Below are positions 1,758-16,779 of a stretch of DNA of 25,963 bases, piece after piece; position 1 is the stretch's first letter; every line of letters begins with the position of its first letter. The notes beneath the pieces were generated by a model that was not told the DNA's origin, made no database searches, and saw only the letters and a list, made by a program, of their open reading frames with translations. Origin of the DNA: a virus; UHGV virus genome UHGV-1408657, one strand, 5' to 3'. Both the position numbers and the translations under genes were made by a program.

Positions 1758-1794
1758 CCATTCCAAAGCTCATCTGCGGATGGGCTTGATAATT

Positions 1795-1830: not shown

Positions 1831-1858
1831 TTAAAAAATCATCAACACGGGGGTTACC

Positions 1859-2098: not shown

Positions 2099-2144
2099 AA
2101 GACGCATACAAGACCGTCTAAAGGCTATTTTTCATTGCCATCGC

Positions 2145-2170: not shown

Positions 2171-2211
2171 GTTGCCATCACCATGGGCAGACCCATCGTG
2201 ATGGCTTTAAT

Positions 2212-2643: not shown

Positions 2644-2663
2644 AATCACTCCATAGGTTTTAC

Positions 2664-3236: not shown

Positions 3237-4804
3237 ATTACAAAGCTGTCTGGAAACCTTTGCCGGGATCACAATCGCTCTCCCTTAGTTGCCCGTGTAA
3301 CGAAATCCTCTACGAGGGAACACGCGGGCCGGGTAAAACTGCCGCTCAGTTAGCGCGCTTCCGTCGTCTCGTTGGCCTGGGCTATGGCTCGTTCTGGCGC
3401 GGCGTCATTTTTGATACCGAGTATAAAAACCTCACCGACATCATCACCCAGTCAAAGCGTATGTACCGCCTGTTTAACGATGGGGCGCGCTATCTGGCGT
3501 CAGCATCTGAACTGCGCTGGGTATGGCCGACTGGCGAAGAGCTGCTCTTTCGATTCGGGAAAGAAGAGAGTGACTACTGGGACTACCACGGTCAGGAGTT
3601 CCCATTCATCGGATTCAACGAGCTGACCAAGCAGCAGTCTGCTGAGTTCTACGAAATGATGTTCTCCTGCCGACGCTCGTCGTTCCGGCCAGAGAATTAC
3701 CCGCTGGATGATGGCTCGCTGCTTAAGCCGATCCCGCTGGAGACGTTCAGCACCACCAACCCGTTTGGCATCGGCCATACTTGGGTGAAGAAACGCTTCA
3801 TTGAGCCAGCACCGCGCGGCACTATCATTCGCGAAACGCAGAAGGTGTTTAACCCGCAGACCGAACGCGAAGAGGATGTGACGCTGACGCGAGTGGCTAT
3901 TCACGGCTCGTTCAAAGAGAACCCGTATCTCGATCCCCAGTACATCGCAACGCTGATGGCCATCAAAGACCCTAATCGGCGCAAAGCGTGGGTAGAGGGC
4001 TCGTGGGATGTCACCAGCGGCGGACGCTTTGACCACCTGTGGAATGCCTCACTGCACGTTATTAAGCCGTTCCGCATCCCGGATAGCTGGACGGTCGACC
4101 GCTCCCATGACTGGGGTGAGTCGAAGCCGTTTTCTAATCTCTGGTGGGCGCGCGCCGACGGTACCGCCGCAGAGTTGCCCGACGGTCGCCAGTTCTGTCC
4201 GCCTGCCGGGTCGCTGATCCTGATTGGAGAATGGTACGGCTGCCCGCCTGATGAGCTCAACAAAGGCCTGAACATGTCATCCACTAACGTCGCCAGAGGC
4301 GTGGCGTGGGTGGATAAACGGCTGGTGGGCGAGGAACTGGCAGAACCCGAAGAGATAAAGCTCAACGGAATCACTCAGGGGCAACTGAACATCATGCCCG
4401 GCATCTGCAAGAAAATTGTTGCTGGCCCTGCTGACGGTGCGATCTATAACACCGGCGATGATGAGTTATCTATTGCGCAGAAGATGGAATCACAGGGCGT
4501 TAAATGGGTTCCATCCAACAAGAAACCGGGATCGCGTGTGAACGGCGCGGCCCTGTTTGCTGACATGCTAGAGGCCGTCATTGAGGGCAAGAAGCTGGAA
4601 TCTGGCACTCCTGAGAAGCCAGCATTCTACGTATTCGACTACTGCCGTGGATGGATAAGCCGCGTGCCGGTGCTCGTTCGCGACAGTAAGAACCCTGATG
4701 ACGTTGATACCCAGCAGGAAGACCACGACTGGGATGGTACGCGATATGCCGTCCTGCATTCACCGCCGAAGAAAGTCGGCAAAGTCACCAACCTGAGGCT
4801 CTAA
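3233..4804 (+). CDS. terminase large subunit
   Basis: 523 aa; Walker A-like GTRGPGKT near N-terminus; start ATG overlaps terS stop (ATGA); size and position typical. Confidence 0.9.
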   Translation: MNYKAVWKPLPGSQSLSLSCPCNEILYEGTRGPGKTAAQLARFRRLVGLGYGSFWRGVIFDTEYKNLTDIITQSKRMYRLFNDGARYLASASELRWVWPTGEELLFRFGKEESDYWDYHGQEFPFIGFNELTKQQSAEFYEMMFSCRRSSFRPENYPLDDGSLLKPIPLETFSTTNPFGIGHTWVKKRFIEPAPRGTIIRETQKVFNPQTEREEDVTLTRVAIHGSFKENPYLDPQYIATLMAIKDPNRRKAWVEGSWDVTSGGRFDHLWNASLHVIKPFRIPDSWTVDRSHDWGESKPFSNLWWARADGTAAELPDGRQFCPPAGSLILIGEWYGCPPDELNKGLNMSSTNVARGVAWVDKRLVGEELAEPEEIKLNGITQGQLNIMPGICKKIVAGPADGAIYNTGDDELSIAQKMESQGVKWVPSNKKPGSRVNGAALFADMLEAVIEGKKLESGTPEKPAFYVFDYCRGWISRVPVLVRDSKNPDDVDTQQEDHDWDGTRYAVLHSPPKKVGKVTNLRL

Positions 4805-4809
4805 CCCCC

Positions 4810-6213
4810 ATGCCTGATATTTCAACACCCAATCTGGACTATGGGAACATGGTTCAGGCGTGGGACATTAACGACGCCCTGATGGGCGGCACGCTGTACA
4901 TGCGCCAGCTTGGTGAGGCATACCTGCCGCGTTGGCCGAAGGAAGACAAAGAGGACTACAAAAAGCGCCTGGCGGTGGCTACGCTGCTGCCGGCGTACGA
5001 AGAGACGATTAACCAGAACGTTGGGCGCGTTTTTGCTGAGCCCATTCAGTTGGGCGAGAATGTGCCGGACCAGCTCCGTGAGTTTGCGAAGAATGTGGAT
5101 CTAGAAGGTAGTCGCCTTGATGTCTGGGCGCAGGCATTCTTCAGCCTGGCGATGCAGTATGGCCTGTCTCATGCGCTGGTGGACTATCCCCGGGTGGACG
5201 CCGAACAGGTTAAGACTAAGGCTGATGAAAAGGCCACTGGCGCACGGCCGTACGTCACCATGCTCAATCCCCGCCAGGTGATTGGCTGGAAGTCGAAGAT
5301 GGTCGGCGGCAAGGTCCAACTCACTGCGCTGCGCATCAAAGAGGTTGTGGTTGAAGATGGCGACGATTTCGGGCAAACCAAGGTTGAGCAGATTCGACTG
5401 CTGACGCCCGGGAAGGTGCAGATTTACCGCAAGGCCACTGGCGACAATGCCCAGGCGAACTGGACGCTGCACGAAGAGTGGGAAACCTCCCGCAGGGATA
5501 TCACTCTGGTCACGCTCTATACCAAGCGCACCGGGTTTATGTGCGGTTCTCCGCCGCTGCTCAACATGGCGTTGCTGAATGTGAAGCACTGGCAGAGTCA
5601 GAGCGAGCAGGACAACATCCTGCACGTAGCGCGCGTCCCACTGCTCACGGTATTCGGGCTGGAGGAGGGGCAGGAACTTGTAATTGGCTCATCCTCTGCG
5701 ACTCAGTTCTCCGATCGACAGAAACAGGGGCTTGAATATGTGGAACACACTGGAACGTCAATCAGTGCCGGTAAAGAGTCGCTAACCGACCTGGTGGAGC
5801 AGATGCGTCAGGCAGGCGCGAAGCTGCTGCGCACTGATAACACCTCAACCAAGTCCGTAGACCAGACCTCGGAAGAGAAAATGCAGGAACAGTCGCCGCT
5901 CTACACTATGGCAACCAGCCTGGAAGATGCGATCGACAACATCCTGCAAATTATGGCCGAGTACATCGGGGAATCTGAGGGTGGTAACGTCGATGTCCGC
6001 ACCGAGCTGGATGTCGAGTCGAAAGAGTTCAATCCTCCTGCTGCACTGGCCATTCAGTCGCTACGTCAGGGCGGTGACCTTCGCCGCATCGATGCGATTA
6101 AATCCCTGCAAAAACTCAACCTGATTGATGCCGATGCAGACCCGGAGAAGGTCCTGGACGAATTGCTGGCTGAATCATCGTCTCTGGATACCAGAACGTT
6201 AGACGAGGTATAG
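4810..6213 (+). CDS. portal protein
   Basis: 467 aa, immediately downstream of terL and upstream of the head-morphogenesis gene; called mainly by conserved gene order and size. Confidence 0.75.
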   Translation: MPDISTPNLDYGNMVQAWDINDALMGGTLYMRQLGEAYLPRWPKEDKEDYKKRLAVATLLPAYEETINQNVGRVFAEPIQLGENVPDQLREFAKNVDLEGSRLDVWAQAFFSLAMQYGLSHALVDYPRVDAEQVKTKADEKATGARPYVTMLNPRQVIGWKSKMVGGKVQLTALRIKEVVVEDGDDFGQTKVEQIRLLTPGKVQIYRKATGDNAQANWTLHEEWETSRRDITLVTLYTKRTGFMCGSPPLLNMALLNVKHWQSQSEQDNILHVARVPLLTVFGLEEGQELVIGSSSATQFSDRQKQGLEYVEHTGTSISAGKESLTDLVEQMRQAGAKLLRTDNTSTKSVDQTSEEKMQEQSPLYTMATSLEDAIDNILQIMAEYIGESEGGNVDVRTELDVESKEFNPPAALAIQSLRQGGDLRRIDAIKSLQKLNLIDADADPEKVLDELLAESSSLDTRTLDEV

Positions 6214-6214
6214 C

Positions 6215-7321
6215 ATGGTCCGCTCTGTCAATGACCGCCTGCAGGACGAGACCATAGCGCATGGCCTGTATGTGACCCGCTATGGTAATGGCGTCGCCCG
6301 GCGCATGGTGGCGCTGCTGAGTAAGATGGATAATGACCTGGCGGCCAGGCTGCTGGTGCTGCTGGATGGCAAGCGCGCAGACACCTACAGTGCCCGCCGC
6401 CTGGCTTCGCTGCTGGCTGGCGTACGCGACCTGAACCAACAGGCCTATGAGCCAGTTAACGATGCGCTGGCGCGGGAACTGAGGCGCTACGTTGAGTATG
6501 AGGCCGGGTATCAGTTGGACCTGTTCAGCAGCATCATTCCGAAGCAGATCCTCACTCACGTTCCGCTTCAGAGCATTGCCCCCGAGCAGGTATACGCAGC
6601 AGCAGTGGCACAGCCCTTCCAGGGGCGCCTGCTGAAGGAGTGGGGCCAGAAGCTTGAAGCCGATCGGCTGGACAAAATCACCAACGCTGTGCGCTCCGGT
6701 TTCCTCCAGGGTGAAACGGTAGAGCAGATTGTCCGGCGCGTCGCTGGCACGCCGAATCTCAACCGTGAAGATGGGGTGATTCACGCTTCCCGGCGCGACC
6801 TTGCTGTGGTGACCCGTACGGCAGTGAACCATATGGCCGCCACGGCGCGCCAGGAGTTCGCCCAGACCAACAGCGATATCGTGAAGGCCAAGCAGTGGTC
6901 CTCAACCCTGGATACGCATACCAGCCAGTGGTGCATCATCCGCGACCGCAAGCTCTACACGCTCGACGGCAAGCCGCTGGGGCATGTGGTCCCGTACCTG
7001 CGCGGTCCCGGCAAAATCCACTTTTGCTGCCGCTCCTGCGAAATCCTGATCACTAAATCGTGGGAGGAAATGCAAATAGCCTCAGGCGAACTGAGCAACG
7101 CCACGCGCGCCTCAATGGACGGACAGGTGCCAGCGCATACCAGCTATGCCGAATGGCTCGTCAGGCAGCCGTACGCACGGCAGGAACAGGTGCTGGGCGT
7201 TACTCGCGTGCGGATGCTACGCGACGGCAAAATCACGGTGCCGGAGATGTTTAACGATGCCGGGGAATTTCTCACTCTGGATGAACTGCGCCGCGTGGAT
7301 GCGTCGGCGTTTGAGGGTTAG
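6215..7321 (+). CDS. head morphogenesis protein (SPP1 gp7 / Mu F-like minor capsid protein)
   Basis: 368 aa following the portal gene; position and size consistent with the F-like head morphogenesis family; ATG 6215 two nt after the portal stop. Confidence 0.65.
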   Translation: MVRSVNDRLQDETIAHGLYVTRYGNGVARRMVALLSKMDNDLAARLLVLLDGKRADTYSARRLASLLAGVRDLNQQAYEPVNDALARELRRYVEYEAGYQLDLFSSIIPKQILTHVPLQSIAPEQVYAAAVAQPFQGRLLKEWGQKLEADRLDKITNAVRSGFLQGETVEQIVRRVAGTPNLNREDGVIHASRRDLAVVTRTAVNHMAATARQEFAQTNSDIVKAKQWSSTLDTHTSQWCIIRDRKLYTLDGKPLGHVVPYLRGPGKIHFCCRSCEILITKSWEEMQIASGELSNATRASMDGQVPAHTSYAEWLVRQPYARQEQVLGVTRVRMLRDGKITVPEMFNDAGEFLTLDELRRVDASAFEG

Positions 7322-7323
7322 CC

Positions 7324-7467
7324 ATGCAAAATGAGAAAGGCAAAACTATCACCCTGACAGAGGCTGAGCGCAAATTCATCATGATTGCGATGATTGCCTA
7401 TACCTTATCTGGTGAGGCGTCAGAAGAAGACGCAAAAATCGCAGAGCAAATAATCAATAAGCTCTGA
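7324..7467 (+). CDS. small hypothetical protein (47 aa) with one hydrophobic segment, not in ORF track
   Basis: ATG 7324 three nt after the upstream stop with GAGGG 11 nt upstream; translation MQNEKGKTITLTEAERKFIMIAMIAYTLSGEASEEDAKIAEQIINKL; followed by a hairpin plus T-run. Confidence 0.3.
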   Translation: MQNEKGKTITLTEAERKFIMIAMIAYTLSGEASEEDAKIAEQIINKL

Positions 7468-7487
7468 GCATTACAAAATTCAACTCA

Positions 7488-7512
7488 AGGCTGCCTTCGG
7501 GGGGCCTTTTTT
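7488..7512 (+). terminator. intrinsic terminator-like hairpin plus T6
   Basis: AGGCTGCC-TTCG-GGGGGCCT (one mismatch) followed by TTTTTT. Confidence 0.45.
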
Positions 7513-7593
7513 ATGCCTGCCGCTAAGCGGATGCGACGCGGTGCCCGGGTCGGATGACCCATTACGTATGGCCGGAAGGCTGGAGCAAAAACA

Positions 7594-8346
7594 ATGAAAC
7601 TGAAACTTGATGCTAACGGAAATGTGGTCGTTGAAAACGGTATGCCTGTGTACATCCATGATGACGGCAAAGAAATCCCGTTCGATGCGGTCGCAGCGAT
7701 GACCAAAATCACCTCTCTGAATGGCGAGGCGAAAACTCACCGTGAAGCGAAGGAAGCGGCGGAAGCCAATCTCGCGAAATTCTCTGGCATCACCGACCCG
7801 GCCAAGGCGCTCGAAGCTCTGGAAATGATGACCAAAATCGACCAGAAAAAACTGATCGATGCTGGTGCTGTTGACCAGGTAAAGGCGGAGATCACCAAAG
7901 TTTTCCAACAGCAGCTGGACGAAGCGAACGGCAAGACCCAGCAGCTGGAAACTCAACTCTACGACGAGATGATCGGCGGCCGCTTTGGTGGCTCTAAGTT
8001 CATTTCCGAGAAGATGGCGATCCCGACTGAGTTCGTTCGTTCCTACTTCGGTCAGAACTTCAAAATCGAAGAAGGGAAGGTTGTGGCCTACGACGGCCAG
8101 GGCAATAAGGTGTTCTCACGCACCAAGCCCGGCGAGTTAGCCAGCTTTGATGAGGCCCTGGAGTCTCTGGTCGAGTCGCATCCGCAGAAAGATTACATCC
8201 TCAAAGCGTCCGGTAACAGCGGCGGCGGTTCTCACCAGTCGCAGCACCAGGCCGGGCAAAAAACCATGAAACGCGCTGCTTTTGACGCCTTACCGCCAGT
8301 TGAACAACAAACGGTAATTGGCGGCGGCACGAGCATCGTTGATTAA
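7594..8346 (+). CDS. head scaffolding protein
   Basis: 250 aa, acidic, helical/coiled-coil-looking with Ala/Glu/Lys-rich segments; directly upstream of the major capsid gene; RBS GGAG 9 nt before ATG. Confidence 0.65.
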   Translation: MKLKLDANGNVVVENGMPVYIHDDGKEIPFDAVAAMTKITSLNGEAKTHREAKEAAEANLAKFSGITDPAKALEALEMMTKIDQKKLIDAGAVDQVKAEITKVFQQQLDEANGKTQQLETQLYDEMIGGRFGGSKFISEKMAIPTEFVRSYFGQNFKIEEGKVVAYDGQGNKVFSRTKPGELASFDEALESLVESHPQKDYILKASGNSGGGSHQSQHQAGQKTMKRAAFDALPPVEQQTVIGGGTSIVD

Positions 8347-8362
8347 TTGAAAGGAAACCTGA

Positions 8363-9499
8363 ATGTCCAATACCCTTACTGGCCTCATCCCAACCATCTT
8401 CACCGCGCTTAATCGCGTATCCCGCGAGCAGGTGGGCTTTATCCCCGCGGTGGCCCGTAACGCTAAGGCCGATGCCGCAGCAAAAGACCAGACCGTGACC
8501 GCGCCCGTTGCACCGAAAACCACCACCGTTGATATCACCCCGGCGGCAACCGCGCCAAACGACGGCGATCAGAACATCGGTACCGTGGACGTCAAGATCA
8601 CCAAATCCAAAATGGCCCCAGTCAAATGGAATGGTGAAGAGCAGCTTGCTATCGGGCCATCAGGTACCTATGACATTGTCCTGGCTGACCAGTTCTCTCA
8701 GGCCTTCCGCGCGCTGAGCAACGAAATGGATGCTGACCTGGCAGCGCTGGCCTACAAATCTTCCCGCGCCGTCGGAACGCCTAAAGACACCCCGTTTAGC
8801 ATCAAAGACGATCTGTCTGATGCAGCGAACGCTCGCCAAATTCTGACCGATAACGGCGCCCCTACCACTGACCTTCGCATGGTGCTGGGCGGCGAAGCGA
8901 TGGCGTCCATCCGTGGTAAGCAGTCCGTACTGTTCAAAGCAAACGAAGCCGGTACCGATCAGTTGCTGCGCGAAGGCATCATCGGCCGTGTGATGGGTTT
9001 TAACCTGCATGAATCCGCCAACATCAAGCGTACCGCGAAAAGCACTGCGGCGGGCTATAAGGTAAACGGCGCGAAGAAAGAGGGCGACATCATTATTGCT
9101 ATCTCTGCTGGCACTGGCGGTATTGCTGCCGGGACCGCAGTGAAGTTCGATGGCGATGACAACCAGTACATGGTCGTAGCGGCAACCTCTTCGACTATCA
9201 CCATCGGCGCACCGGGCCTGCGTCAGGATCTGGCAGATCAGGCAACTGTCACTGTGCTGAGCGAGTTCGTGCCAAACGTTGCCTTTGACCGTAACGCATT
9301 CCTGCTGGCTTGCCGTACCCCGGCCATGCCAAAAGGCGGCGATACCGCTGACGACGTGATGAACGTAACCGATCCGGTCTCTGGTATTACCTTCCAGATC
9401 GCGCTGTACCGCCAGTACCGTCAGGTGCGTTACGAGGTTGGTGTGGCGTGGGGTGTGGCCTCCGTTCAGCCTGAACACTCTACCATCATCATGGGTTAA
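8363..9499 (+). CDS. major capsid protein
   Basis: 378 aa between scaffold and head-tail joining genes; strong RBS AGGAAA; followed by a strong hairpin, typical of highly expressed coat genes. Family assignment (possibly P22-coat-like fold family) is from memory only. Confidence 0.8.
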   Translation: MSNTLTGLIPTIFTALNRVSREQVGFIPAVARNAKADAAAKDQTVTAPVAPKTTTVDITPAATAPNDGDQNIGTVDVKITKSKMAPVKWNGEEQLAIGPSGTYDIVLADQFSQAFRALSNEMDADLAALAYKSSRAVGTPKDTPFSIKDDLSDAANARQILTDNGAPTTDLRMVLGGEAMASIRGKQSVLFKANEAGTDQLLREGIIGRVMGFNLHESANIKRTAKSTAAGYKVNGAKKEGDIIIAISAGTGGIAAGTAVKFDGDDNQYMVVAATSSTITIGAPGLRQDLADQATVTVLSEFVPNVAFDRNAFLLACRTPAMPKGGDTADDVMNVTDPVSGITFQIALYRQYRQVRYEVGVAWGVASVQPEHSTIIMG

Positions 9500-9502
9500 C
9501 CC

Positions 9503-9527
9503 AGGGGGCTTCGGCCCCTTTGTTTTT
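9503..9527 (+). terminator. hairpin plus T-run after capsid gene (likely partial terminator)
   Basis: AGGGGGC-TTCG-GCCCCTT followed by TGTTTTT; sits between capsid stop and the RBS AGGAGG of the next gene. Confidence 0.5.
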
Positions 9528-9538
9528 CAGGAGGCCCA

Positions 9539-9820
9539 ATGGCCGGATTGACCAAAGAGCAGCGCGCGCAGCGTGAGGCTGAAAAGCTTGCGGCGAAGAA
9601 CGGCGCTGAACATGCTCCTGCCCAGCAGGAACAGCAGCAGGAACAGCAGCAGGAACAGCAGCAGGAACAGCAGCAGGAACAGCAGCAGGAACAGCAGGGT
9701 ATTGAGCTGGTGTTCATGGTACGTGACACCCCAGAATTCCCTGGCGGCCCGCTGCGCGCAGATGTTCATTCTGATGAAGTGGATAACTGGCTGGCGCTGG
9801 ACTGGCGTCTGGAGGAATAA
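9539..9820 (+). CDS. small acidic protein with (EQQQ)n tandem repeat, unknown function
   Basis: 93 aa; excellent RBS CAGGAGGCCCAATG; contains about 6 in-frame copies of a 12-nt unit encoding EQQQ; conserved-looking C-terminal part (GIELVFMVRDTPEFPGGPLRADVHSDEVDNWLALDWRLEE). Confidence 0.5.
   Translation: MAGLTKEQRAQREAEKLAAKNGAEHAPAQQEQQQEQQQEQQQEQQQEQQQEQQGIELVFMVRDTPEFPGGPLRADVHSDEVDNWLALDWRLEE
9623..9697 (+). repeat. perfect tandem repeat, 12-nt unit GAACAGCAGCAG, about 6 copies
   Basis: Directly visible: cagcag(gaacagcagcag)x5 gaacagcag; in frame within ORF 9539-9820. Confidence 0.9.
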
Positions 9821-9822
9821 AC

Positions 9823-10305
9823 ATGCTGGTTGCCGATCCCAACTCTCCAGGCTTCAACAGCTACGCAAGCGTGTCAGACCTGCGGGCATTTGCCGCCGGG
9901 CGCGGATATAGCATTCCTGCAGATGATGATGAGTGCGGCCAGATGCTGATGCAGGCAATGGACTTTCTGGAAGGGAAGGCCTGGCGCGGTCAGCGTTCCA
10001 GCGCATCACAGCCTCTATCCTGGCCGCGTTCCGGCGTGCGCTTCGATGGTGTTGAGCTGCCGAATGATACTATTCCACAACGTCTGATTGATGCTCAATG
10101 TCGCCTGGCTATCGAATCGCAGGAGATTGACCTCACCCCGTCGGTCGCTGGCGGTGGGGCGGTGACGATGGAGCGCGTTGAGGGTGCGGTAACAATCCAG
10201 TATGAGCCGGGAACGAATAAAGCTTCTCCGTCATTCCCATGGTTCTATTCCGCACTGCGCGGGCTTGTAGTGGGCGGCAACCAGGTCCGGGTCGAAAGGG
10301 GGTAG
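9823..10305 (+). CDS. putative head-tail adaptor / connector protein
   Basis: 160 aa; first of four consecutive small genes between capsid and major tail genes, the standard siphovirus adaptor, head-closure, neck, tail-completion block. Called by position. Confidence 0.5.
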   Translation: MLVADPNSPGFNSYASVSDLRAFAAGRGYSIPADDDECGQMLMQAMDFLEGKAWRGQRSSASQPLSWPRSGVRFDGVELPNDTIPQRLIDAQCRLAIESQEIDLTPSVAGGGAVTMERVEGAVTIQYEPGTNKASPSFPWFYSALRGLVVGGNQVRVERG

Positions 10306-10306
10306 C

Positions 10307-10660
10307 ATGGCAATCGACTATCGCCGCATGCGTGCTACGGCAACGCGGCTGCTGACGGAGAACGGCAAAGCCTACCAACTGACTCGCGGAGGTACTACCA
10401 CCCGCGATCAGTACGGGAAAGAAGTTGTTACCCCTGCTGTTACTGCCACTGTAACAGGCGTGATCACAGAGTATTCTGCTCGCGAAATCGACGGTTCTCT
10501 GATTGCTACTGGCGATAAGAAACTGGCAGCCACGTTTGAAACCGAAGTGCGCATTGGCGACCTTATCGATATCGAGGGAAAGAAGTGGCGCGTGGTACAG
10601 CCGAATCCGGTTAAGCCGGCAGACGTGCTGATCTCCTACAACATCCAGCTTAGGGCTTGA
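10307..10660 (+). CDS. putative head closure protein
   Basis: 117 aa; second gene of the head-tail joining block; ATG 2 nt after upstream stop. Confidence 0.45.
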   Translation: MAIDYRRMRATATRLLTENGKAYQLTRGGTTTRDQYGKEVVTPAVTATVTGVITEYSAREIDGSLIATGDKKLAATFETEVRIGDLIDIEGKKWRVVQPNPVKPADVLISYNIQLRA

Positions 10661-10662
10661 TT

Positions 10663-11262
10663 ATGACCAGTTCTGCAAATCAGCCGTTCCTGGCAGCCAT
10701 TCAGTTGTTCGTAGATGGTTCTAAGCAGGAGATTGAGGAGGCGGTCCGCCGGACGGGTATCAAAATCCTCGGGCGGTTGGTGGACATGTCACCTGTCGGG
10801 CAGCCAGAAATCTGGCAGGTTAACCAGACGGCATCAGCCTATAACACCGCGGTGCGAGAGCATAACGCGGCGCTACGTGATGATCCGGCCAACCTTACAA
10901 AAGCAGGGCGGCTCAGGCGAGGCCTGCGTGTCAACGATTCGATGGACATCAAAAAGCCAGAGGGTTATGTCGGGGGGCGATTCAAAAATAACTGGTATGT
11001 GGGGCTCGACAGCCAGCCCACAGAGACGAACGATATCCCAGATGCTTCCGGGCAGGGTTCCAACTCCCGCGGGTTGGCGGTGCTCGAAGTGTTCCGGGTG
11101 GGGCAGGTGAACTCGATTTACTTTACCAATAACCTGCCATATGCCCAGGCGCTGGAGAATGGTCATTCGAATCAGGCGCCCGGCGGCATGGTCGGGCTGA
11201 CCGCACTGGATGCTGCGCAATATTTCCGAGAGGCAATGAGCGAGGTATGCAATGGTCGGTGA
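10663..11262 (+). CDS. putative neck / HK97 gp10-like head-tail joining protein
   Basis: ORF-track start 10657 is TTG overlapping the upstream stop; ATG at 10663 preferred. Third gene of the joining block. Confidence 0.45.
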   Translation: MTSSANQPFLAAIQLFVDGSKQEIEEAVRRTGIKILGRLVDMSPVGQPEIWQVNQTASAYNTAVREHNAALRDDPANLTKAGRLRRGLRVNDSMDIKKPEGYVGGRFKNNWYVGLDSQPTETNDIPDASGQGSNSRGLAVLEVFRVGQVNSIYFTNNLPYAQALENGHSNQAPGGMVGLTALDAAQYFREAMSEVCNGR

Positions 11263-11698
11263 TCAGTCCATGCGAATAGCTGACCTGCTGGAGAGCCGGG
11301 TAGCCATAATCTCGGCCTCTCTCGGCTTGCCGATCGCCTGGCCGAATATCGTATTCGATCCACCGGATGCGCCATTCGCCCGTGTTTATGTTTTACCTGC
11401 ACAAACTGTAGGTCAGGACATCGAAGGTTTGATGCGTACCTATCAGGGGATATTGCAGGTAAACATCATTACTCCCGCAGGCTCAGGCGTGAGCCATGCG
11501 AGAGGGCTGGCCCAGTCGGTGGCAGATGCATTCCCTGAAGGACTGCCGCTGGTGGACGGTGAACTGACGGTTTACATCAACGGGCCGCCGCAGGTGAGAC
11601 AACCCATCCAGGACCGGCCAACCTCGGCGCCCAACGGGTCCAGTGGCTCCATAACCTACACCATTCCCGTCAGCATGCAGTACCGCGCTGACTACTGA
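11252..11698 (+). CDS. putative tail completion / tail terminator protein
   Basis: 148 aa; last gene before the major tail protein; overlaps the upstream gene by 11 nt; followed by a strong terminator hairpin. Confidence 0.45.
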   Translation: MVGDQSMRIADLLESRVAIISASLGLPIAWPNIVFDPPDAPFARVYVLPAQTVGQDIEGLMRTYQGILQVNIITPAGSGVSHARGLAQSVADAFPEGLPLVDGELTVYINGPPQVRQPIQDRPTSAPNGSSGSITYTIPVSMQYRADY

Positions 11699-11720
11699 CC
11701 CGCCAGATGGCGGGTTTTTT
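11699..11720 (+). terminator. intrinsic terminator
   Basis: CCCGCC-AGAT-GGCGGG followed by TTTTTT immediately after stop TGA 11696-11698. Confidence 0.6.
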
Positions 11721-11744
11721 ATTACCTAAATTCAGGAGAGTGCT

Positions 11745-12677
11745 ATGGCATTCGCAATCCCTAACGGGTCGCGTGTTAACGTGGCCAAGGCGTATCTTGC
11801 GCCGATTGTCTTCACTGCGGCATCCAATGCGACGGAATGCGAACTGACCGTTGCCTCTGCGGCTGGCATCCTCGCGGGCGATGTTGTTCAGGTTAATTCA
11901 GGATGGCTGAAGCTTGACAACATGGTGGTGCGTGTCAAGTCAGTAACCGGTACGAAAATCGTGCTGGAAGCATTTGATACCACCGATACCAAGAAATTCC
12001 CGGCGGGTACTGGGGCAGGTACGCTGCGTAAAATTGATTCGTGGATCACCATGCCTCAGGTGATGACGCTGTCCACCGAAGGCGGTGACCAGCAGACCAT
12101 CAGTGTGCAGTTCCTGGAGGATGATAAGGCCCGTACCATCCCGACGTTCAAAAACGCCGTGGTTCAGGTCTACACCTTCGCACACGACCCGAATCTGGCG
12201 ATTTACAAGCGCCTCATCGACCTGGACGACTCCAGCGACACCACGGCGGTCTGGTTCCACAACCCACGCGGCAAAGCGGATCGTTACTACTCTGCCAAAG
12301 TGTCGTTCCAGCGCGTGCCACGTACCGAAATCAACGCCGTCGAGAGTAACGAAGCGCGAATGAACTTCGAATCGGATATGCAGATTTACCCGATTGCCGA
12401 TTCCTCCGCTACGCCGCTGGCGTTCCTGACCGACCTGCCAGCAACTAAGTCTGTTGCTGCTAATGCAGCTCTGGATCTGTCGGTGGTCATGCAGGGCGGT
12501 TCCGCGCCGTATACCTACGTATGGAAGAAAGACGGCACAGCCATTCCGGGCAAAACCGCATCCACGCTCAACATTCCGTCCGCTCAGTCTTCCGATGCTG
12601 GGGTGTATACCTGCGAAGTTACCGATGCCGCAGGCAAGACGCTCACTTCTGCCGGATGCACCGTCAGCATTACTTGA
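11745..12677 (+). CDS. major tail (tube) protein with C-terminal Ig-like domain
   Basis: 310 aa; RBS CAGGAGAG; C-terminal about 90 aa has Ig-fold hallmarks (YTYVWKKDGTAIPG...DAGVYTCEVTDAAGKT); position upstream of the G/G-T chaperone genes. Confidence 0.8.
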   Translation: MAFAIPNGSRVNVAKAYLAPIVFTAASNATECELTVASAAGILAGDVVQVNSGWLKLDNMVVRVKSVTGTKIVLEAFDTTDTKKFPAGTGAGTLRKIDSWITMPQVMTLSTEGGDQQTISVQFLEDDKARTIPTFKNAVVQVYTFAHDPNLAIYKRLIDLDDSSDTTAVWFHNPRGKADRYYSAKVSFQRVPRTEINAVESNEARMNFESDMQIYPIADSSATPLAFLTDLPATKSVAANAALDLSVVMQGGSAPYTYVWKKDGTAIPGKTASTLNIPSAQSSDAGVYTCEVTDAAGKTLTSAGCTVSIT

Positions 12678-12684
12678 TTAATCT

Positions 12685-12702
12685 GGCCCGGTAAGCCGGG
12701 CC
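12685..12702 (+). other. perfect 7-bp stem hairpin after the major tail gene (no T-run)
   Basis: GGCCCGG-TAAG-CCGGGCC; may act as an RNA stability element or weak attenuator. Confidence 0.4.
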
Positions 12703-12718
12703 TTACCGAGATGAACAA

Positions 12719-13057
12719 ATGACCAAATTCTCCCTGCTCCCCAATCCGACATTTTCCGTTACTGCCAGCATCCCGCGCGCTGGGGCCGAAGATGGCAAGC
12801 TGACCTTCACTTTCCGCCATAAAACGCTGGACGAGCTGCGCTCCATGGACGAGAAGCTGCAAAAGGCTGCTGAAGGTAAAAAGGCTGCTATTGAGCCGCA
12901 GGCCAATTACCTCATGGAAATTGTCGAAGGCTGGGCGCTGCCGGATGAGTTCAACCGCGATAACGTGATCATCCTCCTGAAGAACTATCCGCGCGCTTTC
13001 GACAGCATCGGTCTGGCCTACACCAAAGAACTGATGGGTATCCGCGAAAAAAACTGA
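12719..13057 (+). CDS. tail assembly chaperone (lambda gpG analogue)
   Basis: 112 aa acidic protein directly upstream of the tape measure gene, ending in a slippery A-run; typical G position. Confidence 0.8.
   Translation: MTKFSLLPNPTFSVTASIPRAGAEDGKLTFTFRHKTLDELRSMDEKLQKAAEGKKAAIEPQANYLMEIVEGWALPDEFNRDNVIILLKNYPRAFDSIGLAYTKELMGIREKN
13048..13054 (+). other. programmed -1 ribosomal frameshift site, slippery heptamer A_AAA_AAC
   Basis: Zero-frame codons GAA AAA AAC TGA end gpG; the -1 frame is open from here to 13362 and joins the ORF-track ORF 13075-13362 (whose listed start is TTG). Confidence 0.7.
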
Positions 13058-13362
13058 GGCAGGTCGCCGCAGCGTTGTACACGCCGGGACCGACTCTCGC
13101 GGAACTGAGCGCTTTTGGTTTGACGCCTGAGGACGTGGAGGAAGAGGTGGGGATCCTGCCGTCGGTATGGAAAGCCTTCACTATCTTCTCCACGCTGGCG
13201 ACTCAATGGCGCGTTGGCGCGGGTGGGGCGACCGGCCTTGATTACAACGTTCTCCCTTGGGTGTTTGAGTTACACGGGGTTGAGGATGCGGCGGCCTGCA
13301 TGGCTGACCTTCAGATTATGGAAAGCGAGGCTCTCAAAGTAATGCACAAGGAGACGAAATAA
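13054..13362 (+). CDS. gpT-like extension, expressed only as G-T fusion via -1 frameshift
   Basis: The -1 frame continues ...EKKLRQVAAALYTPGPTLAELSAFGLTPEDVEEE... to a stop just before the tape measure ATG; no independent RBS or ATG. Confidence 0.7.
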   Translation: MRQVAAALYTPGPTLAELSAFGLTPEDVEEEVGILPSVWKAFTIFSTLATQWRVGAGGATGLDYNVLPWVFELHGVEDAAACMADLQIMESEALKVMHKETK

Positions 13363-16300
13363 TGACAGACCAAATCGCCTCGATCACATTGCGTGCTGAC
13401 GTATCCGATCTGAAAACAGCCAGCAATGAACTGGATAAACTCGGTGAAGCCGCGGCGGGTGCCGTCGGCAAAGCTGATGACCTCAACAGCGTATTCCGTG
13501 CTGGTGCTGAGTCTGCGAAGCAGGGCAGCGAAGGTATCAAAGAGCAGCAGATGGCGCTGAAAGGCCTGCTGGAGAATATCGACCCGGTAAACAAGGCGCT
13601 TAACCGGCTGGATGAACAGCAGGCCGCCCTGCGTAACTTCCAGACCAAAGGCTTCCTGGATACCGATGATTTTCAGCACTACAACAAAATCCTCGACGAT
13701 ACGCGGCTAAAGCTGACGGATACCGGCGAAGCTGCTGCCAGGGCACAAGCCGAACTGGCAGCGACTCAGGCCGCTGAGAAGCAGTCCGCTGCGCTGAAGA
13801 ACCTGCTGGGCTCTATCGACCCGACGATCCGCGCATTCAACTCACTGGATGAGCAGCACGCGCAGCTGGTGGCGCATTTCGAAGCTGGGCGCATCAACGG
13901 CGCGCAGTTCGAGCACTTCAATACAATCCTCAACCAGACGCGGGAGCGTCTGTCTGGCGTGGCTGACGTGCTGCCAGAGGCACTATCCCGACAGGAAGCA
14001 GCGGCGCGTCGTGCCGGTATATCGGTCGGCCAGTACAGCGCCGCGATGCGCACGCTACCAGCACAGTTCACAGATATCGCCACACAGCTGGCTGGCGGTC
14101 AGTCGCCGTTCCTGATCCTGCTGCAACAGGGTGGGCAGATTAAAGACCAATTTGGTGGGGTTAAAGGGGCTCTATCGGGGGTGGGCGACTATTTACGCAC
14201 TCTGTTAGGTTTCATTAATCCTATAACGATAGGTATTAGCGGCCTGGTTGTAGGCCTCGGGGCGATGGCTGTAGCTTGGTACAAAGGCAGCCAGGAAGCC
14301 AGTGAGTTTAATAAGCAGCTCATACTCACGGGTAATTATTCGGCCAGTTCGGCGAGTCAACTGTCAGACATGGCTCAAAAAATTGGAGGCTCCAGTGGTA
14401 AGGTTGCGGCTGCCGCTCGGACGCTCGCGGATGTGGTTGGGGTAGGGACGTTTAAAACGGAGCAGCTCGAAACAGTTACCAGGGCGGCGCTGGCGATGCA
14501 GGAGGCCACTGGCCAGTCTGTTGACGCCACCATTAAGAACTTCCAAAAGCTGTATGCCAGCCCAACCAAGGCGGCGGAGGATCTTAATTCTACGCTCCAT
14601 TTTCTTACCTCATCGCAATACGACTACATTTCGGCACTGGAGCGTCGGGGTGATAAAGAGGGAGCAGCAGAGGAGGCTGCAAAAGCTTATAGCCTAGCCG
14701 AGCAAAAGCGCAGCCAGCAAATCCTCGACAACATGGGATTAATTGAGAGAGCTGCTGGTAGCGTCAGCAAGGCCCTTAAGGGGATGTGGGATGAACTTCT
14801 GAATATTGGTCGCCCTGAAGCTCCGAACGACATGCTCCGCAAGATGCAGTCCGAACTTGCTGAGCGTGAGAAAGCCTTGCTTCCAGATAGACAGCGTCAG
14901 GGATATGGATATAGCTATGATGCGAGCAGTAACGATCAGGAATATGACGCACGTAGGAAAGCTCAGTTATCAGCGATAAGTGCTTTAAAGGCACAAATAG
15001 CGCCACTTCAGCAAGCTGCTCAGCTTCAGGAAGATATTAATGCTTCTATTCAGCAAGGAACCGAGGATGATAACAAGCGAACTAATGCCCTGATTTATCG
15101 AAACCGCATCCTTGAACAGTCAGCTACATGGCAGGAAAAACGCAGCAAGGCCCTGTCTGAACTTTGGAAAAATGTCGCGGCCTCGCCCGGCGACTGGAGC
15201 TCAGCACAGCGGCAGCAGGCTGTAGATGCCATTAATAAACAGTTTCATCCGGACAAAACTCCCAAAACTCCAGCCGTTAAGGTTTCAACAGGTGATCGCT
15301 CAACCGACACCTACAATGCTGAGACTCTAGCTCTGCAAGCGCAGCTCAAAACGCTGCAGGATCATCGTGACATCAACGATGTAATCAGCCAGCAGCGTAA
15401 GCAGCAGTGGGAGTTAATCTCAAAAATCACCATCCTCGAGTCCACAGCTAACGATCCGAAAGGGCGTGCATTAACTTTCGATGAAAAATCGTTGCTGGCG
15501 AACAAAGAGAAGCTGCTGGCCCAGGCAGATATTAATGCCGGACTGGGTGATCAAATTGCCAAGCAGCAAAAATTGAACTCATTGGCTGACCAGGCAACTA
15601 AGTTCGCCCAGCAACAGTCTGCCAAGCAGGCGGAAATTGCGGCAGCAGCTAGAGGCTTGTCCACCAGAGAGGCTGAAAGGGAGGCGACGCGCCAGCGCCT
15701 GACTGAATCCTACGGCTTTAACCAAGACGCTCAGAAAAAGGTTCTCGCAGATCAAGAGGAGACCTACCGGAAAGAAGATGAACTTCGCAGCGACTGGCAG
15801 GCTGGCGCAAAGCGGGGCTGGGCCGATTATGCCGACTCAGCAACAAACACGTTTGAAGCAATGCGAAATGTGGCCGGTTCAACCTTCAGTGGTCTATCCG
15901 ACATGTTGACAGATCTGGTTACTACCGGCACTGCAAGCTTCAAAGACTTCACCAAGTCCATGTTGAAGATGATCGCGCAGGTAACGAATCAGTTGCTTGT
16001 GGCTTACGCCGTTCAGGCTGCGATGGGGTGGATTAGCGGTAGTGCTGGTGGCAACACGCCAGGCGGAGCATATGCCAGCGCTGCAAACTCTGGAGTTAGC
16101 CTGTTTGATTCCGGTGGTTACACAGGTGCGGGCGGTAAATATGAACCCGCAGGCATCGTGCATAAAGATGAGTTCGTTTTCACCAAAGAAGCCACTAGGC
16201 GGATCGGCGTAGATAACCTATATCGTCTAATGAACAACGGTAATTTAGGCCGTTACGCTTCTGGTGGGCTTGTTGGGGGAAATCAGGCTGGGGCGGCAGA

Positions 16301-16493
16301 CTCTGGTGTGCCAATTATCAGCGTCAGTTTTGGTGACATAAACATTGGTTCAGGTGGACAGGCCAATACAGGTGGCTCAGCAAATGCTGCAGCTATTGGC
16401 AGGCAACTCAACGATGCGATGATTGACACCATTAATACTCAAGTAAGAAAACCAGGCACTCCGCTGTGGAATGCCGTTAGAGGGAAATACTAA
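13362..16493 (+). CDS. tail tape measure protein
   Basis: 1043 aa, Ala/Gln/Glu-rich coiled-coil N-terminal half, hydrophobic central segment (FLILLQQGG...GLVVGLGAMAVAW), Gly-rich C-terminus; follows G/G-T. Confidence 0.9.
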   Translation: MTDQIASITLRADVSDLKTASNELDKLGEAAAGAVGKADDLNSVFRAGAESAKQGSEGIKEQQMALKGLLENIDPVNKALNRLDEQQAALRNFQTKGFLDTDDFQHYNKILDDTRLKLTDTGEAAARAQAELAATQAAEKQSAALKNLLGSIDPTIRAFNSLDEQHAQLVAHFEAGRINGAQFEHFNTILNQTRERLSGVADVLPEALSRQEAAARRAGISVGQYSAAMRTLPAQFTDIATQLAGGQSPFLILLQQGGQIKDQFGGVKGALSGVGDYLRTLLGFINPITIGISGLVVGLGAMAVAWYKGSQEASEFNKQLILTGNYSASSASQLSDMAQKIGGSSGKVAAAARTLADVVGVGTFKTEQLETVTRAALAMQEATGQSVDATIKNFQKLYASPTKAAEDLNSTLHFLTSSQYDYISALERRGDKEGAAEEAAKAYSLAEQKRSQQILDNMGLIERAAGSVSKALKGMWDELLNIGRPEAPNDMLRKMQSELAEREKALLPDRQRQGYGYSYDASSNDQEYDARRKAQLSAISALKAQIAPLQQAAQLQEDINASIQQGTEDDNKRTNALIYRNRILEQSATWQEKRSKALSELWKNVAASPGDWSSAQRQQAVDAINKQFHPDKTPKTPAVKVSTGDRSTDTYNAETLALQAQLKTLQDHRDINDVISQQRKQQWELISKITILESTANDPKGRALTFDEKSLLANKEKLLAQADINAGLGDQIAKQQKLNSLADQATKFAQQQSAKQAEIAAAARGLSTREAEREATRQRLTESYGFNQDAQKKVLADQEETYRKEDELRSDWQAGAKRGWADYADSATNTFEAMRNVAGSTFSGLSDMLTDLVTTGTASFKDFTKSMLKMIAQVTNQLLVAYAVQAAMGWISGSAGGNTPGGAYASAANSGVSLFDSGGYTGAGGKYEPAGIVHKDEFVFTKEATRRIGVDNLYRLMNNGNLGRYASGGLVGGNQAGAADSGVPIISVSFGDINIGSGGQANTGGSANAAAIGRQLNDAMIDTINTQVRKPGTPLWNAVRGKY

Positions 16494-16717
16494 TGAAAAT
16501 TGCAGAAGTAAAGGTCTCTGATGTTGTTTGGTATGCCAACGAAAATGGAAAGGCGATCAGTGCCTTCGTGACTTTCTATGGCCCAGACGATTGCACTCGC
16601 ATTGCAAGTGTCCCTGTTAACTTGCCATATCAGCTAGACCTGACCCTTAAGCAAGTTGAAGAGCTTGCCATTGCCACTGCTAAGGGTACGCTAAAAGCGG
16701 TCGCTACTAGTTTCTGA
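16493..16717 (+). CDS. hypothetical protein (74 aa), translationally coupled to tape measure stop
   Basis: ATG overlaps the TMP stop (TAATG); no motif recognised; sits where lambda has gpM directly after H, so it is extra relative to the canonical tail order. Confidence 0.5.
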   Translation: MKIAEVKVSDVVWYANENGKAISAFVTFYGPDDCTRIASVPVNLPYQLDLTLKQVEELAIATAKGTLKAVATSF

Positions 16718-16779
16718 TCGTTACATCCCTATCTCCCCTGGTTATCATGAGAAAAAACATGATAATCATGGGGATGATA

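Follow-up and report, generated by a model that had tools for sequence, protein, structure and literature searches.

The DNA analysed here, a stretch of 25,963 nt that is called the window throughout, represents the late operon of a lambdoid siphophage of the HK639 type, and has approximately 82% nucleotide identity to HK639. Four gene junctions on the + strand, U-V, doc-M, I-J and cor-stf, carry a terminator-like element of common anatomy, in which a GC hairpin of 7-8 bp with a 4-nt loop is followed by T6-T7 and then directly by the SD of the following gene. The stems contain 5-6 GC pairs (dG -11.3 to -14.6 kcal/mol; 8 T per 10-nt tail window), all four hairpins are intergenic and share the orientation of the operon, and the U-tract lies directly 3' of the stem, at 11715, 18424, 20937 and 25529. 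At U-V the hairpin CCCGCCAGATGGCGGG occupies 11699-11714 and the T-run begins at 11715. At each of the four sites the U-run adjoins the SD, and the SD-ATG spacing is fixed at 5-6 nt. By their anatomy the four elements appear to be ordinary hairpin-plus-T-run terminators, each fused to the following tail gene's ribosome-binding leader (Table 1), and the positions at which an earlier note had placed such terminator-linker-RBS cassettes proved accurate to 1-2 nt.

Table 1. Terminator-like hairpins, leaders and islands of the window
Feature	Position	Strand	Particulars
Hairpin + T6 after head-morphogenesis gene, terminator-like	7487..7514	+	HK639 4901-4922 annotated "terminator"
Hairpin after major head protein gene, terminator-like	9503..9527	+	Conserved in relatives and HK639
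U-V hairpin + T6, terminator-like	11697..11720	+	Stem GACCCGCC/GGCGGGTT, loop AGAT; 8 bp, 6 GC, dG -14.6
V leader	11721..11744	+	Linker ATTACCTAAATTC, SD AGGAG, 6-nt spacer; ATG at 11745
V-G hairpin without T-run	12685..12702	+	GGCCCGG-TAAG-CCGGGCC; T-run and/or moron at orthologous site of relatives
Island 1 (morons)	16493..18405	+	p74, p147, internal terminator 17234-17258, Phd-like ORF, Doc (Fic/DOC); GC 0.42-0.46
Phd/Doc moron terminator	18406..18430	+	AACCCGC-TTCG-GCGGGTT + T7; T-run shared with M leader
M leader	18431..18441	+	ATGGAGCAAAT, SD GGAG; ATG at 18442
I-J hairpin + T7, terminator-like	20920..20943	+	AGCACCC-AATT-GGGTGCT; annotated in HK639 (19137-19160) and N15 (15307-15330)
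J leader	20944..20954	+	ATGGATGCAAT; ATG at 20955; N15 at the same place: TTTTTTTATGGGCGCAATATGGC
Island 2	24161..25510	+	phrog_557, phrog_425, conserved regulatory gap 25153-25260, cor; same gene order in N15, HK225
cor moron terminator	25511..25534	+	AACCCGC-TTCG-GCGGGTT + T6; N15 20021-20045 and HK225 20075-20096 annotated between cor and fibre gene
Tail-fibre leader	25535..25558	+	Linker ATTATCTGAATTC (palindrome CTGAATTCAG), SD AGGAG, 6-nt spacer; ATG at 25559

Distribution and prior annotation of the elements

Further + strand hairpins resembling the four are found at 1766, 2146, approximately 7487-7514, 9503, 12685 (this one without a T-run) and 17234. At the four sites the hairpin comes within 0-45 nt of the stop codon of the preceding gene. 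From terS onward every gap of at least 39 nt holds a strong hairpin except G-H and p224-cor, the G-H gap (the G-T frameshift region) having merely a weak 6-bp stem without a T-run. A permissive terminator scan of the window returned 25 sites as against 17.6 +/- 4.0 in shuffled sequence, a mild enrichment overall. A known structured RNA is ruled out in the window, where an Rfam scan at gathering thresholds matched 0 families, and an attenuator working through a leader peptide or an alternative fold was rejected, as folds of 51-66 nt around the sites gave no alternative structure; the z-scores of these folds (-0.5 to -3.2) are driven by the hairpin alone.

The elements were already known, in that they are orthologous to terminators annotated in HK639, N15 and HK225. 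GenBank "terminator" features stand at the orthologous U-V, pre-M and pre-J junctions of HK639 (NC_016158: 9019-9040, 16631-16655, 19137-19160, and others), and N15 and HK225 have putative rho-independent terminators before J/gene 21 and fibre gene 25, at matching positions. The HK639 feature at 9019-9040 is the orthologue of the U-V element and is identical to it bar one linker base, while the J hairpin and the M and J leaders are near-identical in the two phages. HK639 differs in having two tandem terminators before M, where the window has a single fused one, in carrying YafO toxin rather than Phd/Doc in its island, in possessing a moron at V-G, where the window has none, and in its lack of a cor/stf-type junction with this cassette. 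N15 and HK225 have the J leader TTTTTTTATGGGCGCAATATGGC, and the gene order gp22-gp23-cor-terminator-fibre is common to them and the window, but their hairpin stems are different, there is no terminator at U-V or H-M, and their fibre linker reads ATTGCCC(A/G)AAAGGAG against ATTATCTGAATTCAGGAG in the window. As a discovery the four elements therefore carry small weight, since orthologues are already annotated and moron terminators are textbook phage genomics.

Conservation, islands and mosaic boundaries

Across a conservation set of 25 species-level related prophage loci, the hairpin with its T-run is retained at V, M and J, the stems varying but remaining complementary. V was found in 23 prophage loci, and a hairpin precedes it in every one of them, including those with a V family of only 40% identity; the stem or U-tract is weakened or broken in two of the 23. 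The corresponding figures are 24 of 25 related loci for M, with at least 6 different complementary stems, and 25 of 25 other loci for J; a stricter terminator scan, counted over loci with both flanking genes found, passes 16/17 at M and 24/25 at J. The U|V loop is hypervariable and the stem next to it occurs in compensatory variants (CCCGTC/GACGGG, CCCACC/GGTGGG), whereas the V leader is conserved at 0.79-1.0 per position as against 0.07-0.29 in the adjacent loop (15 loci), a difference that points to purifying selection on the V linker relative to the neighbouring loop. For the M hairpin covariation was scored on an alignment anchored on the hairpin loop, plain MAFFT having misaligned the stems; in this alignment, the anchoring of which favours structure, 93% of cells are paired, double-sided changes occur in 5 of 8 pairs, and the score of 0.565 compares with 0.20 in shuffles (0/500) and at most 0.12 for slid partners.

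Islands of variable size are found among relatives only at V-G, H-M, I-J and J-stf, and resident hairpins are present at all four junctions. At V-G, 6 loci have a gap of 41-68 nt and 9 one of 769-1413 nt; at H-M, 5 relatives have a gap of 30-33 nt and 12 loci (window and HK639 counted) one of 301-2258 nt; at I-J, 19 loci have 53-56 nt and 6 have 146-3132 nt. The M terminator is kept even where H-M is island-free (5 loci). It had been proposed that the two islands of the window are each bounded downstream by such a hairpin, and both do end in one. Their GC content is low (0.40-0.46 vs 0.51-0.59 in the flanks) and their genes are of moron type: island 1 encodes a Fic/Doc toxin, island 2 phrog_557, phrog_425 and Cor; the 108-nt regulatory gap preceding cor is more strongly conserved than cor itself. 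A terminator at the downstream boundary follows from the classical definition of morons, which carry their own promoter and their own terminator (PMC3594210). In the window the morons' own terminators are those at 17234, 18408 and 25513; weak promoter-like matches lie at 16396, 16720 and 25215, and promoter-like sites in the islands are not above shuffle expectation. Like described morons (Juhala et al., 2000; Cumby, Davidson & Maxwell, 2012, PMC3594210), the islands are variably inserted between genes that lie side by side in relatives, are of lower GC, hold genes of benefit to the lysogen (Doc toxin, Cor exclusion) and have their own downstream terminator; they depart from that model in that the U-V and I-J terminators of the window have no moron attached and in that the moron promoters here are only putative.

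Homology joints map to the 5' edge of the hairpin, to the T-run or to the ATG. At the M junction identity of 21 other loci to the window is approximately 1.0 from -20 to the ATG and approximately 0.25 (random) upstream of about -22, and the M hairpin AACCCAGC..GCTGGGTT is preceded by at least 5 unrelated upstream sequences. Homology to phage SW-37 (Salmonella) spans 17221-18429, ending at the end of the T-run; the block has a terminator at each side, and the SW-37 copy of the Phd/Doc unit has the same terminator in another context. Tandem terminators occur at the junctions in HK639 and in prophages L141 and L142. The fibre cassette is preceded by 17 different upstream contexts, and 47 of 80 close fibre homologues (59%) have no upstream terminator and directly abut the preceding gene; the cassette is thus dispensable for stf, and the idea that it forms an obligatory part of the fibre gene was rejected. 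The modest value of these data lies in the lineage, which is a clean comparative system for the role of internal terminators of late operons: islands come and go at four junctions (V-G, H-M, I-J, J-stf), island-free terminators persist, and breakpoints are seen at the nucleotide level. It could be used to set insulation against attenuation and RNA stability, and to study the part of terminator micro-homology in moron mobility.

Likeness between the sites

The mutual likeness of the sites, which had first drawn attention to them, probably reflects a generic design together with module shuffling at these junctions. The U-V element does recur before stf with two mismatches (TTTTTTATTACCTAAATTCAGGAGA at 11715-11739, TTTTTTATTATCTGAATTCAGGAGA at 25529-25553); for this 25-nt pair two matches were obtained in 0 of 100 dinucleotide shuffles, and a repeat finder extends it to 42 nt at 83%. 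These raw shuffle statistics overstate the specificity of the pair, because half of each 25-nt match is generic U-tract plus SD; the similarity of the two linkers is itself specific. A sigma-70 promoter in the V/stf linker was considered and set aside, since inspection by eye showed no acceptable -35 at a distance of 16-18 nt and the promoter scan called no site in that stretch.

The linker before M likewise resembles that before J, as had been reported (TTTTTTTATGGAGCAAATATGGC at 18424-18446 and TTTTTTTATGGATGCAATATGGC at 20937-20959; 20 of 23 positions identical, a level that 0 of 100 shuffles reach). This similarity of the M and J leaders is old. In the Pantoea prophage L141 an identical 80-nt cassette stands before both M and J, and this duplicate appears to be a homogenised M/J leader, one cassette having been copied between the junctions.

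The 24-mer ATAACCCGCTTCGGCGGGTTTTTT is a different case. It is indeed identical at 18406-18429 and 25511-25534 (the first coordinate had been given one position off), but the tie between the doc-M and cor-stf sites that was read into it does not hold, the sequence being a generic terminator that is met with in more than 120 viral contigs between unrelated flanks. Its 23-mer core has matches in at least 120 IMG/VR stretches, where an M-type leader follows it in one and a V/stf-type leader in one, and nearly all flanks differ. A mobile repeat of REP or MITE type was rejected on the ground that only about 23 nt are shared, between unrelated flanks and without terminal inverted repeats or target duplications.

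Termination, read-through and competing readings

A gene of the Phage_antiter_Q family (PF06323) lies 830 nt upstream of the holin gene in contigs L267-L270, and L267 is 100% identical to window positions 1-13136 except for one repeat-number difference. In L267 terminator-like sites at 6607 and 7234 follow Q, and there is a single promoter-like site at 6675-6702. The four sites are probably intrinsic terminators of an HK639-like late operon that are read through under Q and insulate the morons, their likeness having three causes. Each terminator would occupy one of the few gene junctions without overlap, with its U-tract running into the next leader. During lytic growth polymerase modified by the phage Q would read through all the sites, whereas unmodified polymerase, whether it started at the promoters of morons (Phd/Doc, cor) or at spurious ones in the lysogen, would stop at them, and the morons would in consequence be self-contained and M to I, J and stf silent in the prophage. 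The first cause of likeness would be that AACCCGC-UUCG-GCGGGUU plus a U-run is a generic and very common terminator design; the second, that the short M and J leaders are old translation-initiation parts, which recombination can homogenise; and the third, that gain and loss of morons at the junctions may fuse a moron-borne hairpin to the resident U-run and leader, of which the doc-M site (18406-18441) would be an example.

The earlier note had suggested conserved attenuators read through by a late antiterminator, and it is from the observed anatomy, the conservation, the compensatory variation of stems, the mosaic breakpoints and the presence of a Q gene upstream, together with the annotation in HK639, N15 and HK225, that we infer termination, read-through and an insulating role. 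A literature search found no Term-seq or RNA-seq study of HK639-like phages. One point against the terminator model is the strong terminator before V, the most abundant tail protein, where there is no moron to insulate and for which the model gives no specific reason. Also against it are the V-G hairpin without a T-run, the many fibre homologues with no terminator upstream, the mildness of the enrichment in the permissive scan, and the promoter-like sites of the islands, which do not rise above shuffle expectation. There are parallels with the lambda Q system, in which tR' is read through: here too a Q-family gene and then terminators lie upstream of the lysis and structural genes, and a single long late operon contains terminators, the difference being that Q here is of the PF06323 family. 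Lambda is not known to carry so many terminators within its structural operon. Another precedent is P22-like phage L, where terminators within a late operon were recognised and partial termination or the blocking of non-antiterminated transcription was proposed (10.1101/2020.10.05.325894), the role of terminators within one-promoter late operons being stated there as unknown. Phage L and P22 thus share with the window terminators inside a one-promoter late operon and the same two candidate roles, and P22 has in addition a variable moron (ant) directly upstream of its receptor-binding protein gene (tailspike); they are podoviruses with unrelated sequences.

Some hairpins may act on RNA and not on polymerase, because in the window, N15 and HK225 alike no T-run follows the V-G hairpin. 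An explanation built on this, possible if on the unlikely side, holds that the hairpins are barriers to 3' exonucleases or processing landmarks in the read-through mRNA that lengthen the half-life of segments such as MCP and V, that the U-rich tract immediately before the SD is a ribosome (S1) standby site or enhancer, and that termination is incidental. The two most abundant structural genes do have hairpins beside them (that at 9503 after MCP; those at 11697 and 12685 around V), that at V-G is conserved yet lacks a U-tract, and both the contact of U-run and closely spaced SD at 4/4 sites and the conservation of the V linker far above that of the neutral loop are in keeping with a role in the message. 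Most sites, however, keep an unbroken T6-T7 across relatives, which a pure stability hairpin would not need, and the hairpin that precedes V would lend stability to the low-copy genes upstream of it and not to V. Action on RNA is in any case compatible with termination.

The sites might also act as partial attenuators, at each of which a fixed fraction of polymerase would terminate even when modified by Q, lowering the transcription of the distal low-copy genes M to I, J and stf. We regard this as unlikely. The sites do precede genes of decreasing copy need (M, J, stf), but that at U-V precedes the high-copy V, and lambda-type Q modification is highly processive over many terminators. A precedent comes from P22, whose ant moron is believed to modulate late read-through into the tailspike gene (PMC2629481), and partial termination is among the roles listed by the authors of the phage L study (10.1101/2020.10.05.325894).

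The suggestion that the cassettes are linkers guiding modular recombination is borne out as a correlation, in that breakpoints fall in the cassette or at its edge and a cassette has been copied in L141; the guiding role is not, since selection for functional boundaries predicts the same pattern. In its strong form this reading, which we consider quite doubtful, has micro-homology in terminators and leaders actively directing the exchange of morons and tail modules, with the recurrence kept for or by exchange. It resembles the "linker" hypothesis of Susskind and Botstein, with short conserved sequences at module boundaries between unrelated flanks, but the conserved sequences here serve an evident purpose themselves, as terminator and RBS; a literature search on "linker sequences" in lambdoid phages found nothing specific. 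The abrupt loss of identity upstream of about -22 at M, the unrelated sequences that precede the M hairpin and the fibre cassette, the terminator-bounded SW-37 block, the confinement of islands to four junctions with resident hairpins, and the duplicated L141 cassette and tandem terminators all fit such a role. Selection acting on random illegitimate recombinants would, however, equally yield breakpoints at gene boundaries; some breakpoints lie before the hairpin and others after it, and in 59% of stf homologues, which have no cassette, the breakpoint coincides exactly with the ATG; many of the unrelated contexts of the 23-mer lie outside module junctions of tail operons, which fits a convergent optimal terminator; and a homology of 20-25 nt is marginal for RecA or Red recombination. 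It is similarly improbable that the cassettes are preferred crossover substrates and that terminator-to-terminator units (the Phd/Doc block at 17221-18429, SW-37) are a mobile currency among enterobacterial siphophages, with the V and fibre leaders as a trace of exchange or a shared translational operator.

Lastly, a cis-regulatory site shared by V and the fibre gene, AUUAYCURAAUUCAGGAG, at which a protein or sRNA would co-regulate translation, is very improbable: the two linkers are equally spaced and share 23 of 25 positions, the motif matches in IMG/VR (at least 119) are confined to V and fibre contexts except for two fibre-like variants, the V linker is under purifying selection relative to the loop, and the perfect palindrome CTGAATTCAG lies within the fibre version, but no more than about 14 of the 25 positions fall outside U-tract and SD, two of the central five differ, L131, L132 and L136 combine the same V leader with different fibre leaders, most fibre homologues have no cassette, and there is neither an Rfam match nor a known candidate binding factor. 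The hairpin of this same cor-stf junction (25511..25534) has an A-tract upstream of it, by virtue of which it scores on the - strand as well.

Hairpin cassettes at the late gene boundaries

The window covers the lysis, head and tail genes of a lambdoid siphophage whose nearest sequenced relative is Escherichia phage HK639 (81.8% nucleotide identity over 57% of a 17-kb query), and Pfam and PHROGs identify a tail terminator (U-like), an Ig-domain tail tube protein (V), a gpM-like Phage_min_tail protein, J and a tail-fibre N-terminus. At four gene boundaries an earlier note had described a cassette comprising a hairpin, a T-run and a linker with the Shine-Dalgarno (SD) sequence of the next gene. 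Re-reading the sites gave the same sequences, with coordinates good to 1-2 nt, and a repeat finder recovered all three similarities claimed between them. The two linker patterns are confined, in the window, to the places reported for them (0/100 dinucleotide shuffles matched this). A terminator consensus scan placed all four sites, along with 9503 and 17234, as the best plus-strand terminator-like sites; the four hairpins have energies between -11.3 and -14.6 kcal/mol, and 8 of the 10 nucleotides in the tail are T.

Hairpin cassettes at four gene junctions
Site	Junction	Hairpin element	Coordinates	Following sequence	ATG	Strand	Basis
1	U/V	hairpin CCCGCCAGATGGCGGG	11699-11714	TTTTTTATTACCTAAATTCAGGAGAGTGCT	11745	+	sequence reading
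2	doc/M	ATAACCCGCTTCGGCGGGTTTTTTT	18406-18430	ATGGAGCAAAT	18442	+	sequence reading
3	I/J	AGCACCCAATTGGGTGCTTTTTTT	20920-20943	ATGGATGCAAT	20955	+	sequence reading
4	cor/stf	ATAACCCGCTTCGGCGGGTTTTTT	25511-25534	ATTATCTGAATTCAGGAGACATCC	25559	+	sequence reading

The four sites are members of a larger hairpin set. From terS onward, every intergenic gap of at least 39 nt holds a strong hairpin with a 4-nt loop except the regulatory gap before cor and the G/H gap (the G-T frameshift region), which has just a weak 6-bp stem without a T-run. The V/G hairpin (12685-12702; 7 bp, all GC) is conserved and is without a T-run in the window, locus L130, N15 and HK225; at the same spot HK639 and eight other relatives have a T-run, followed by a moron (an extra gene unit between phage genes) of 0.8-1.4 kb that ends in its own terminator.

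Orthologues of these elements are already annotated, so that they are of a known kind and of low novelty. The HK639 GenBank record carries the label 'terminator' at 9019-9040 (U/V), 16631-16655 (before M) and 19137-19160 (before J), as well as after the head-morphogenesis gene and around the V/G moron. Its U/V element differs from that of the window by one linker base, its J element is AGCACCCAATTGGGTGCTTTTTTTATGGATGTAATATGG, and before M it has two tandem terminators, the first of which (ACCCGCTTCGGCGGGTTTTTG) ends the HK639 YafO moron while the second, resident one is fused to TTTTTTTATGGAGAAAATATGGC. In N15 and HK225, whose tail lineage is other than the window's, rho-independent terminators are annotated ahead of J (AGCCACCTCCGGGTGGCTTTTTTTATGGGCGCAATATGGC) and in the gap that separates cor from the fibre gene.

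A perfect 13-bp inverted repeat without a T-run (AGCAGACAGACGA..TCGTCTGTCTGCT, 18033-18064) falls within the doc coding sequence. A long GC-rich leader at 7515-7593, downstream of the 7487-7514 terminator and 5' of ORF 7594-8346, is matched nearly base for base in HK639 (4925-5003), is recognisable in two other loci (L126, L139), and may be a structured 5' UTR. At 1760-2670, after the lysis genes and before terS, two plus-strand terminator-like hairpins (1766-1787, 2146-2167) accompany a minus-strand ORF (2212-2670) that is called as a 143-aa gene in contig L267; here the late operon holds a unit of opposite orientation.

Structural conservation and proposed read-through

A gpL-based scan of species-representative genomes yielded 25 prophage loci with 10-kb flanks, the closest from Kluyvera (95%) and others from Leclercia, Enterobacter, Pantoea and elsewhere. 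A hairpin precedes V in all 23 loci in which V was found, including eight whose V is only ~40% identical, although the stem is weakened in L130 and the U-tract broken in L140. Before M it is present in 24/25 loci (L125 lacks it), with at least six kinds of stem (CCCGC, CCTCGC, CCCAGC, CCCAC, CCACC, CCCGCC), each self-complementary. All 25 other loci have one before J, in two main classes: a resident class, AGCACCC..GGGTGCT, and a second, TAACCCGCTTCGGCGGG, found wherever an island is inserted between I and J; L135 has a third stem. Under stricter terminator criteria, applied where both flanking genes were found, 16/17 loci pass for M and 24/25 for J.

When M hairpins are anchored on the loop, in an alignment fitted to the hairpin, 93% of cells pair, both sides change in 5/8 pairs, and covariation scores 0.565, compared with 0.20 for shuffled alignments (0/500) and at most 0.12 for slid partners. 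At U/V the stem and 18-nt linker keep a per-position identity of 0.79-1.0, with compensatory stems such as CCCGTC/GACGGG and CCCACC/GGTGGG, whereas the tetraloop (11705-11708) has only 0.07-0.29 identity to the window, with at least 13 variants among contigs with near-identical flanks, and is essentially neutral. Its variants include AGAT and its inverse ATCT, as template switching within a palindrome would produce. Because of the covariation, the compensatory stems and the neutral loop, selection is seen to act on the structure of the hairpin and on the U-run as an unbroken tract.

Contigs from gut metagenomes match window 1-13136 at 100% identity except in repeat number and continue further upstream, where they hold a Phage_antiter_Q gene (PF06323) 830 nt ahead of the holin, with terminator-like sites after it. 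Structural selection together with this Q gene makes intrinsic terminators that Q-modified polymerase would read through the best-supported mechanism, and to this extent the earlier note's terminator interpretation is supported. Late-operon terminators in phage L have been proposed to terminate partially or to halt transcription begun without antitermination (10.1101/2020.10.05.325894). A role at the RNA level, in protecting or processing 3' ends while the U-run enhances translation, is plausible and compatible with termination; the V/G hairpin without a T-run and the placement of hairpins around the major head protein gene and V both favour it. Partial attenuation at the sites has a precedent in P22 (PMC2629481) and is rather improbable here, and it is unlikely that the V and fibre leaders are a shared operator. 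A known RNA family and leader-peptide attenuation were rejected (no Rfam match at the gathering threshold; no alternative fold), as was, by promoter scan, a promoter hidden in the V/stf linker.

In L267 a small ORF (6740-7000) lies after the Q gene and before the holin; it encodes a lipoprotein-like signal (MHKIIFYSTVLSAFFLSAC...) and has a terminator-like site on either side, at 6607 and 7234. This spot, downstream of pR', is the classical moron position. The repeat that varies is a tandem 12-nt unit, (CAGCAGGAACAG)n, encoding QQEQ (9611-9706, in ORF 9539-9820, a small head-region protein homologous to HK639_07), whose copy number sets the window apart from the otherwise identical contigs L267 and L270.

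Islands, fusions and mosaic boundaries

The 24-mer identical at sites 2 and 4 had been taken to tie them together; it carries no specific information of that sort. At least 120 IMG/VR stretches contain its 23-nt core, TAACCCGCTTCGGCGGGTTTTTT, and among the matches listed nearly all flanks differ on both sides, the M-type leader following it in only one and the V/stf-type leader in only one. The 24-mer is a generic C(UUCG)G-tetraloop terminator, and showing this is one of two small additions made here. The unrelated flanks also led to rejection of a MITE-like repeat.

Site 2 itself is a fusion: homology to Salmonella phage SW-37 stops at the T-run, where the leader of M takes over. The Phd/Doc unit (17221-18429) is 86% identical to SW-37 in a block that starts at the preceding terminator (17234) and extends through the final T of the T-run, beyond which SW-37 has unrelated sequence. 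The M junction of 21 other loci has an identity to the window of ~0.25 between -120 and -22, rising to ~1.0 between -20 and the ATG. In tblastn the doc match to SW-37 breaks into three segments, and the SW-37 copy may therefore be frameshifted. In a nearby 188-aa TTG ORF (17290-17856) just the last 59 residues match the Phd-like family phrog_2208, and its region is overlapped by a 119-aa minus-strand ORF (17193-17552) without a family match.

Two GC-poor islands, their gene content assigned by Pfam and PHROGs, precede M (p74, p147, a Phd-like ORF and a Fic/Doc toxin) and stf (phrog_557, phrog_425 and Cor). Among relatives the gap is 41-68 or 769-1413 nt at V/G, 30-33 or 301-2258 nt at H/M, and 53-56 or 146-3132 nt at I/J; these sizes show V/G, H/M, I/J and J/stf to be the insertion hot spots. 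The terminator adjoins the downstream ATG in relatives with or without an island, an arrangement that would fit the definition of a moron as having its own promoter and terminator (PMC3594210). Breakpoints coincide with the cassettes, as had been predicted, falling at the hairpin 5' edge, the U-run or the ATG. For the proposal that the linkers guide recombination this is no more than a correlation, since exchange guided by homology would look the same as selection that keeps gene boundaries intact.

The 108-nt gap between p224 and cor (25153-25260) is AT-rich and better conserved than cor itself among cor homologues of 50-100% amino acid identity, N15 and HK225 included. It contains a palindrome (TGATCG-N7-CGATCA, ~25154-25175) and a further GATC at ~25186, which makes 3-4 Dam sites within 35 nt. 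These features fit a separate regulatory region that probably serves the cor moron as operator and promoter.

Leader similarities between junctions

The M leader (TTTTTTTATGGAG.AAATATGGC) and the J leader (TTTTTTTATGGAYGYAATATGGC) are each kept throughout the family, the J version also in N15. The prophage of Pantoea sp. 1.19 has an identical 80-nt unit 5' of gpM and gpJ (9580-9660 and 15158-15238 of locus L141), each copy after a different island and consisting of two tandem CCCGCTTCGGCGG hairpins and the leader TTTTTTATGGGAGACATATGGCAA; whole cassettes can therefore be copied between these junctions. This duplication is the second small addition.

The leader pattern common to V and the fibre gene, TTTTTATTAYCTRAATTCAGGAG, has at least 119 IMG/VR matches and, among the matches listed, only two contexts: upstream of HK639-type V (~56 matches; 4 upstream contexts, 1 downstream) and upstream of MSAGT-type fibre genes (~61 matches; 17 upstream contexts, 6 downstream clusters, 20 hairpin variants). 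The cassette is not intrinsic to the fibre gene: in 47 of 80 fibre homologues retrieved by protein the upstream gene abuts, there is no hairpin, and homology begins exactly at the ATG; the other 33 have it. Relatives sharing the V leader have fibre leaders of other types. About half of the 25-nt V/stf match is U-tract or SD, and the rest is alike at 12/14 positions. The resemblance is real and the sole such residue without an explanation, for which past exchange between the two junctions is the simplest account.
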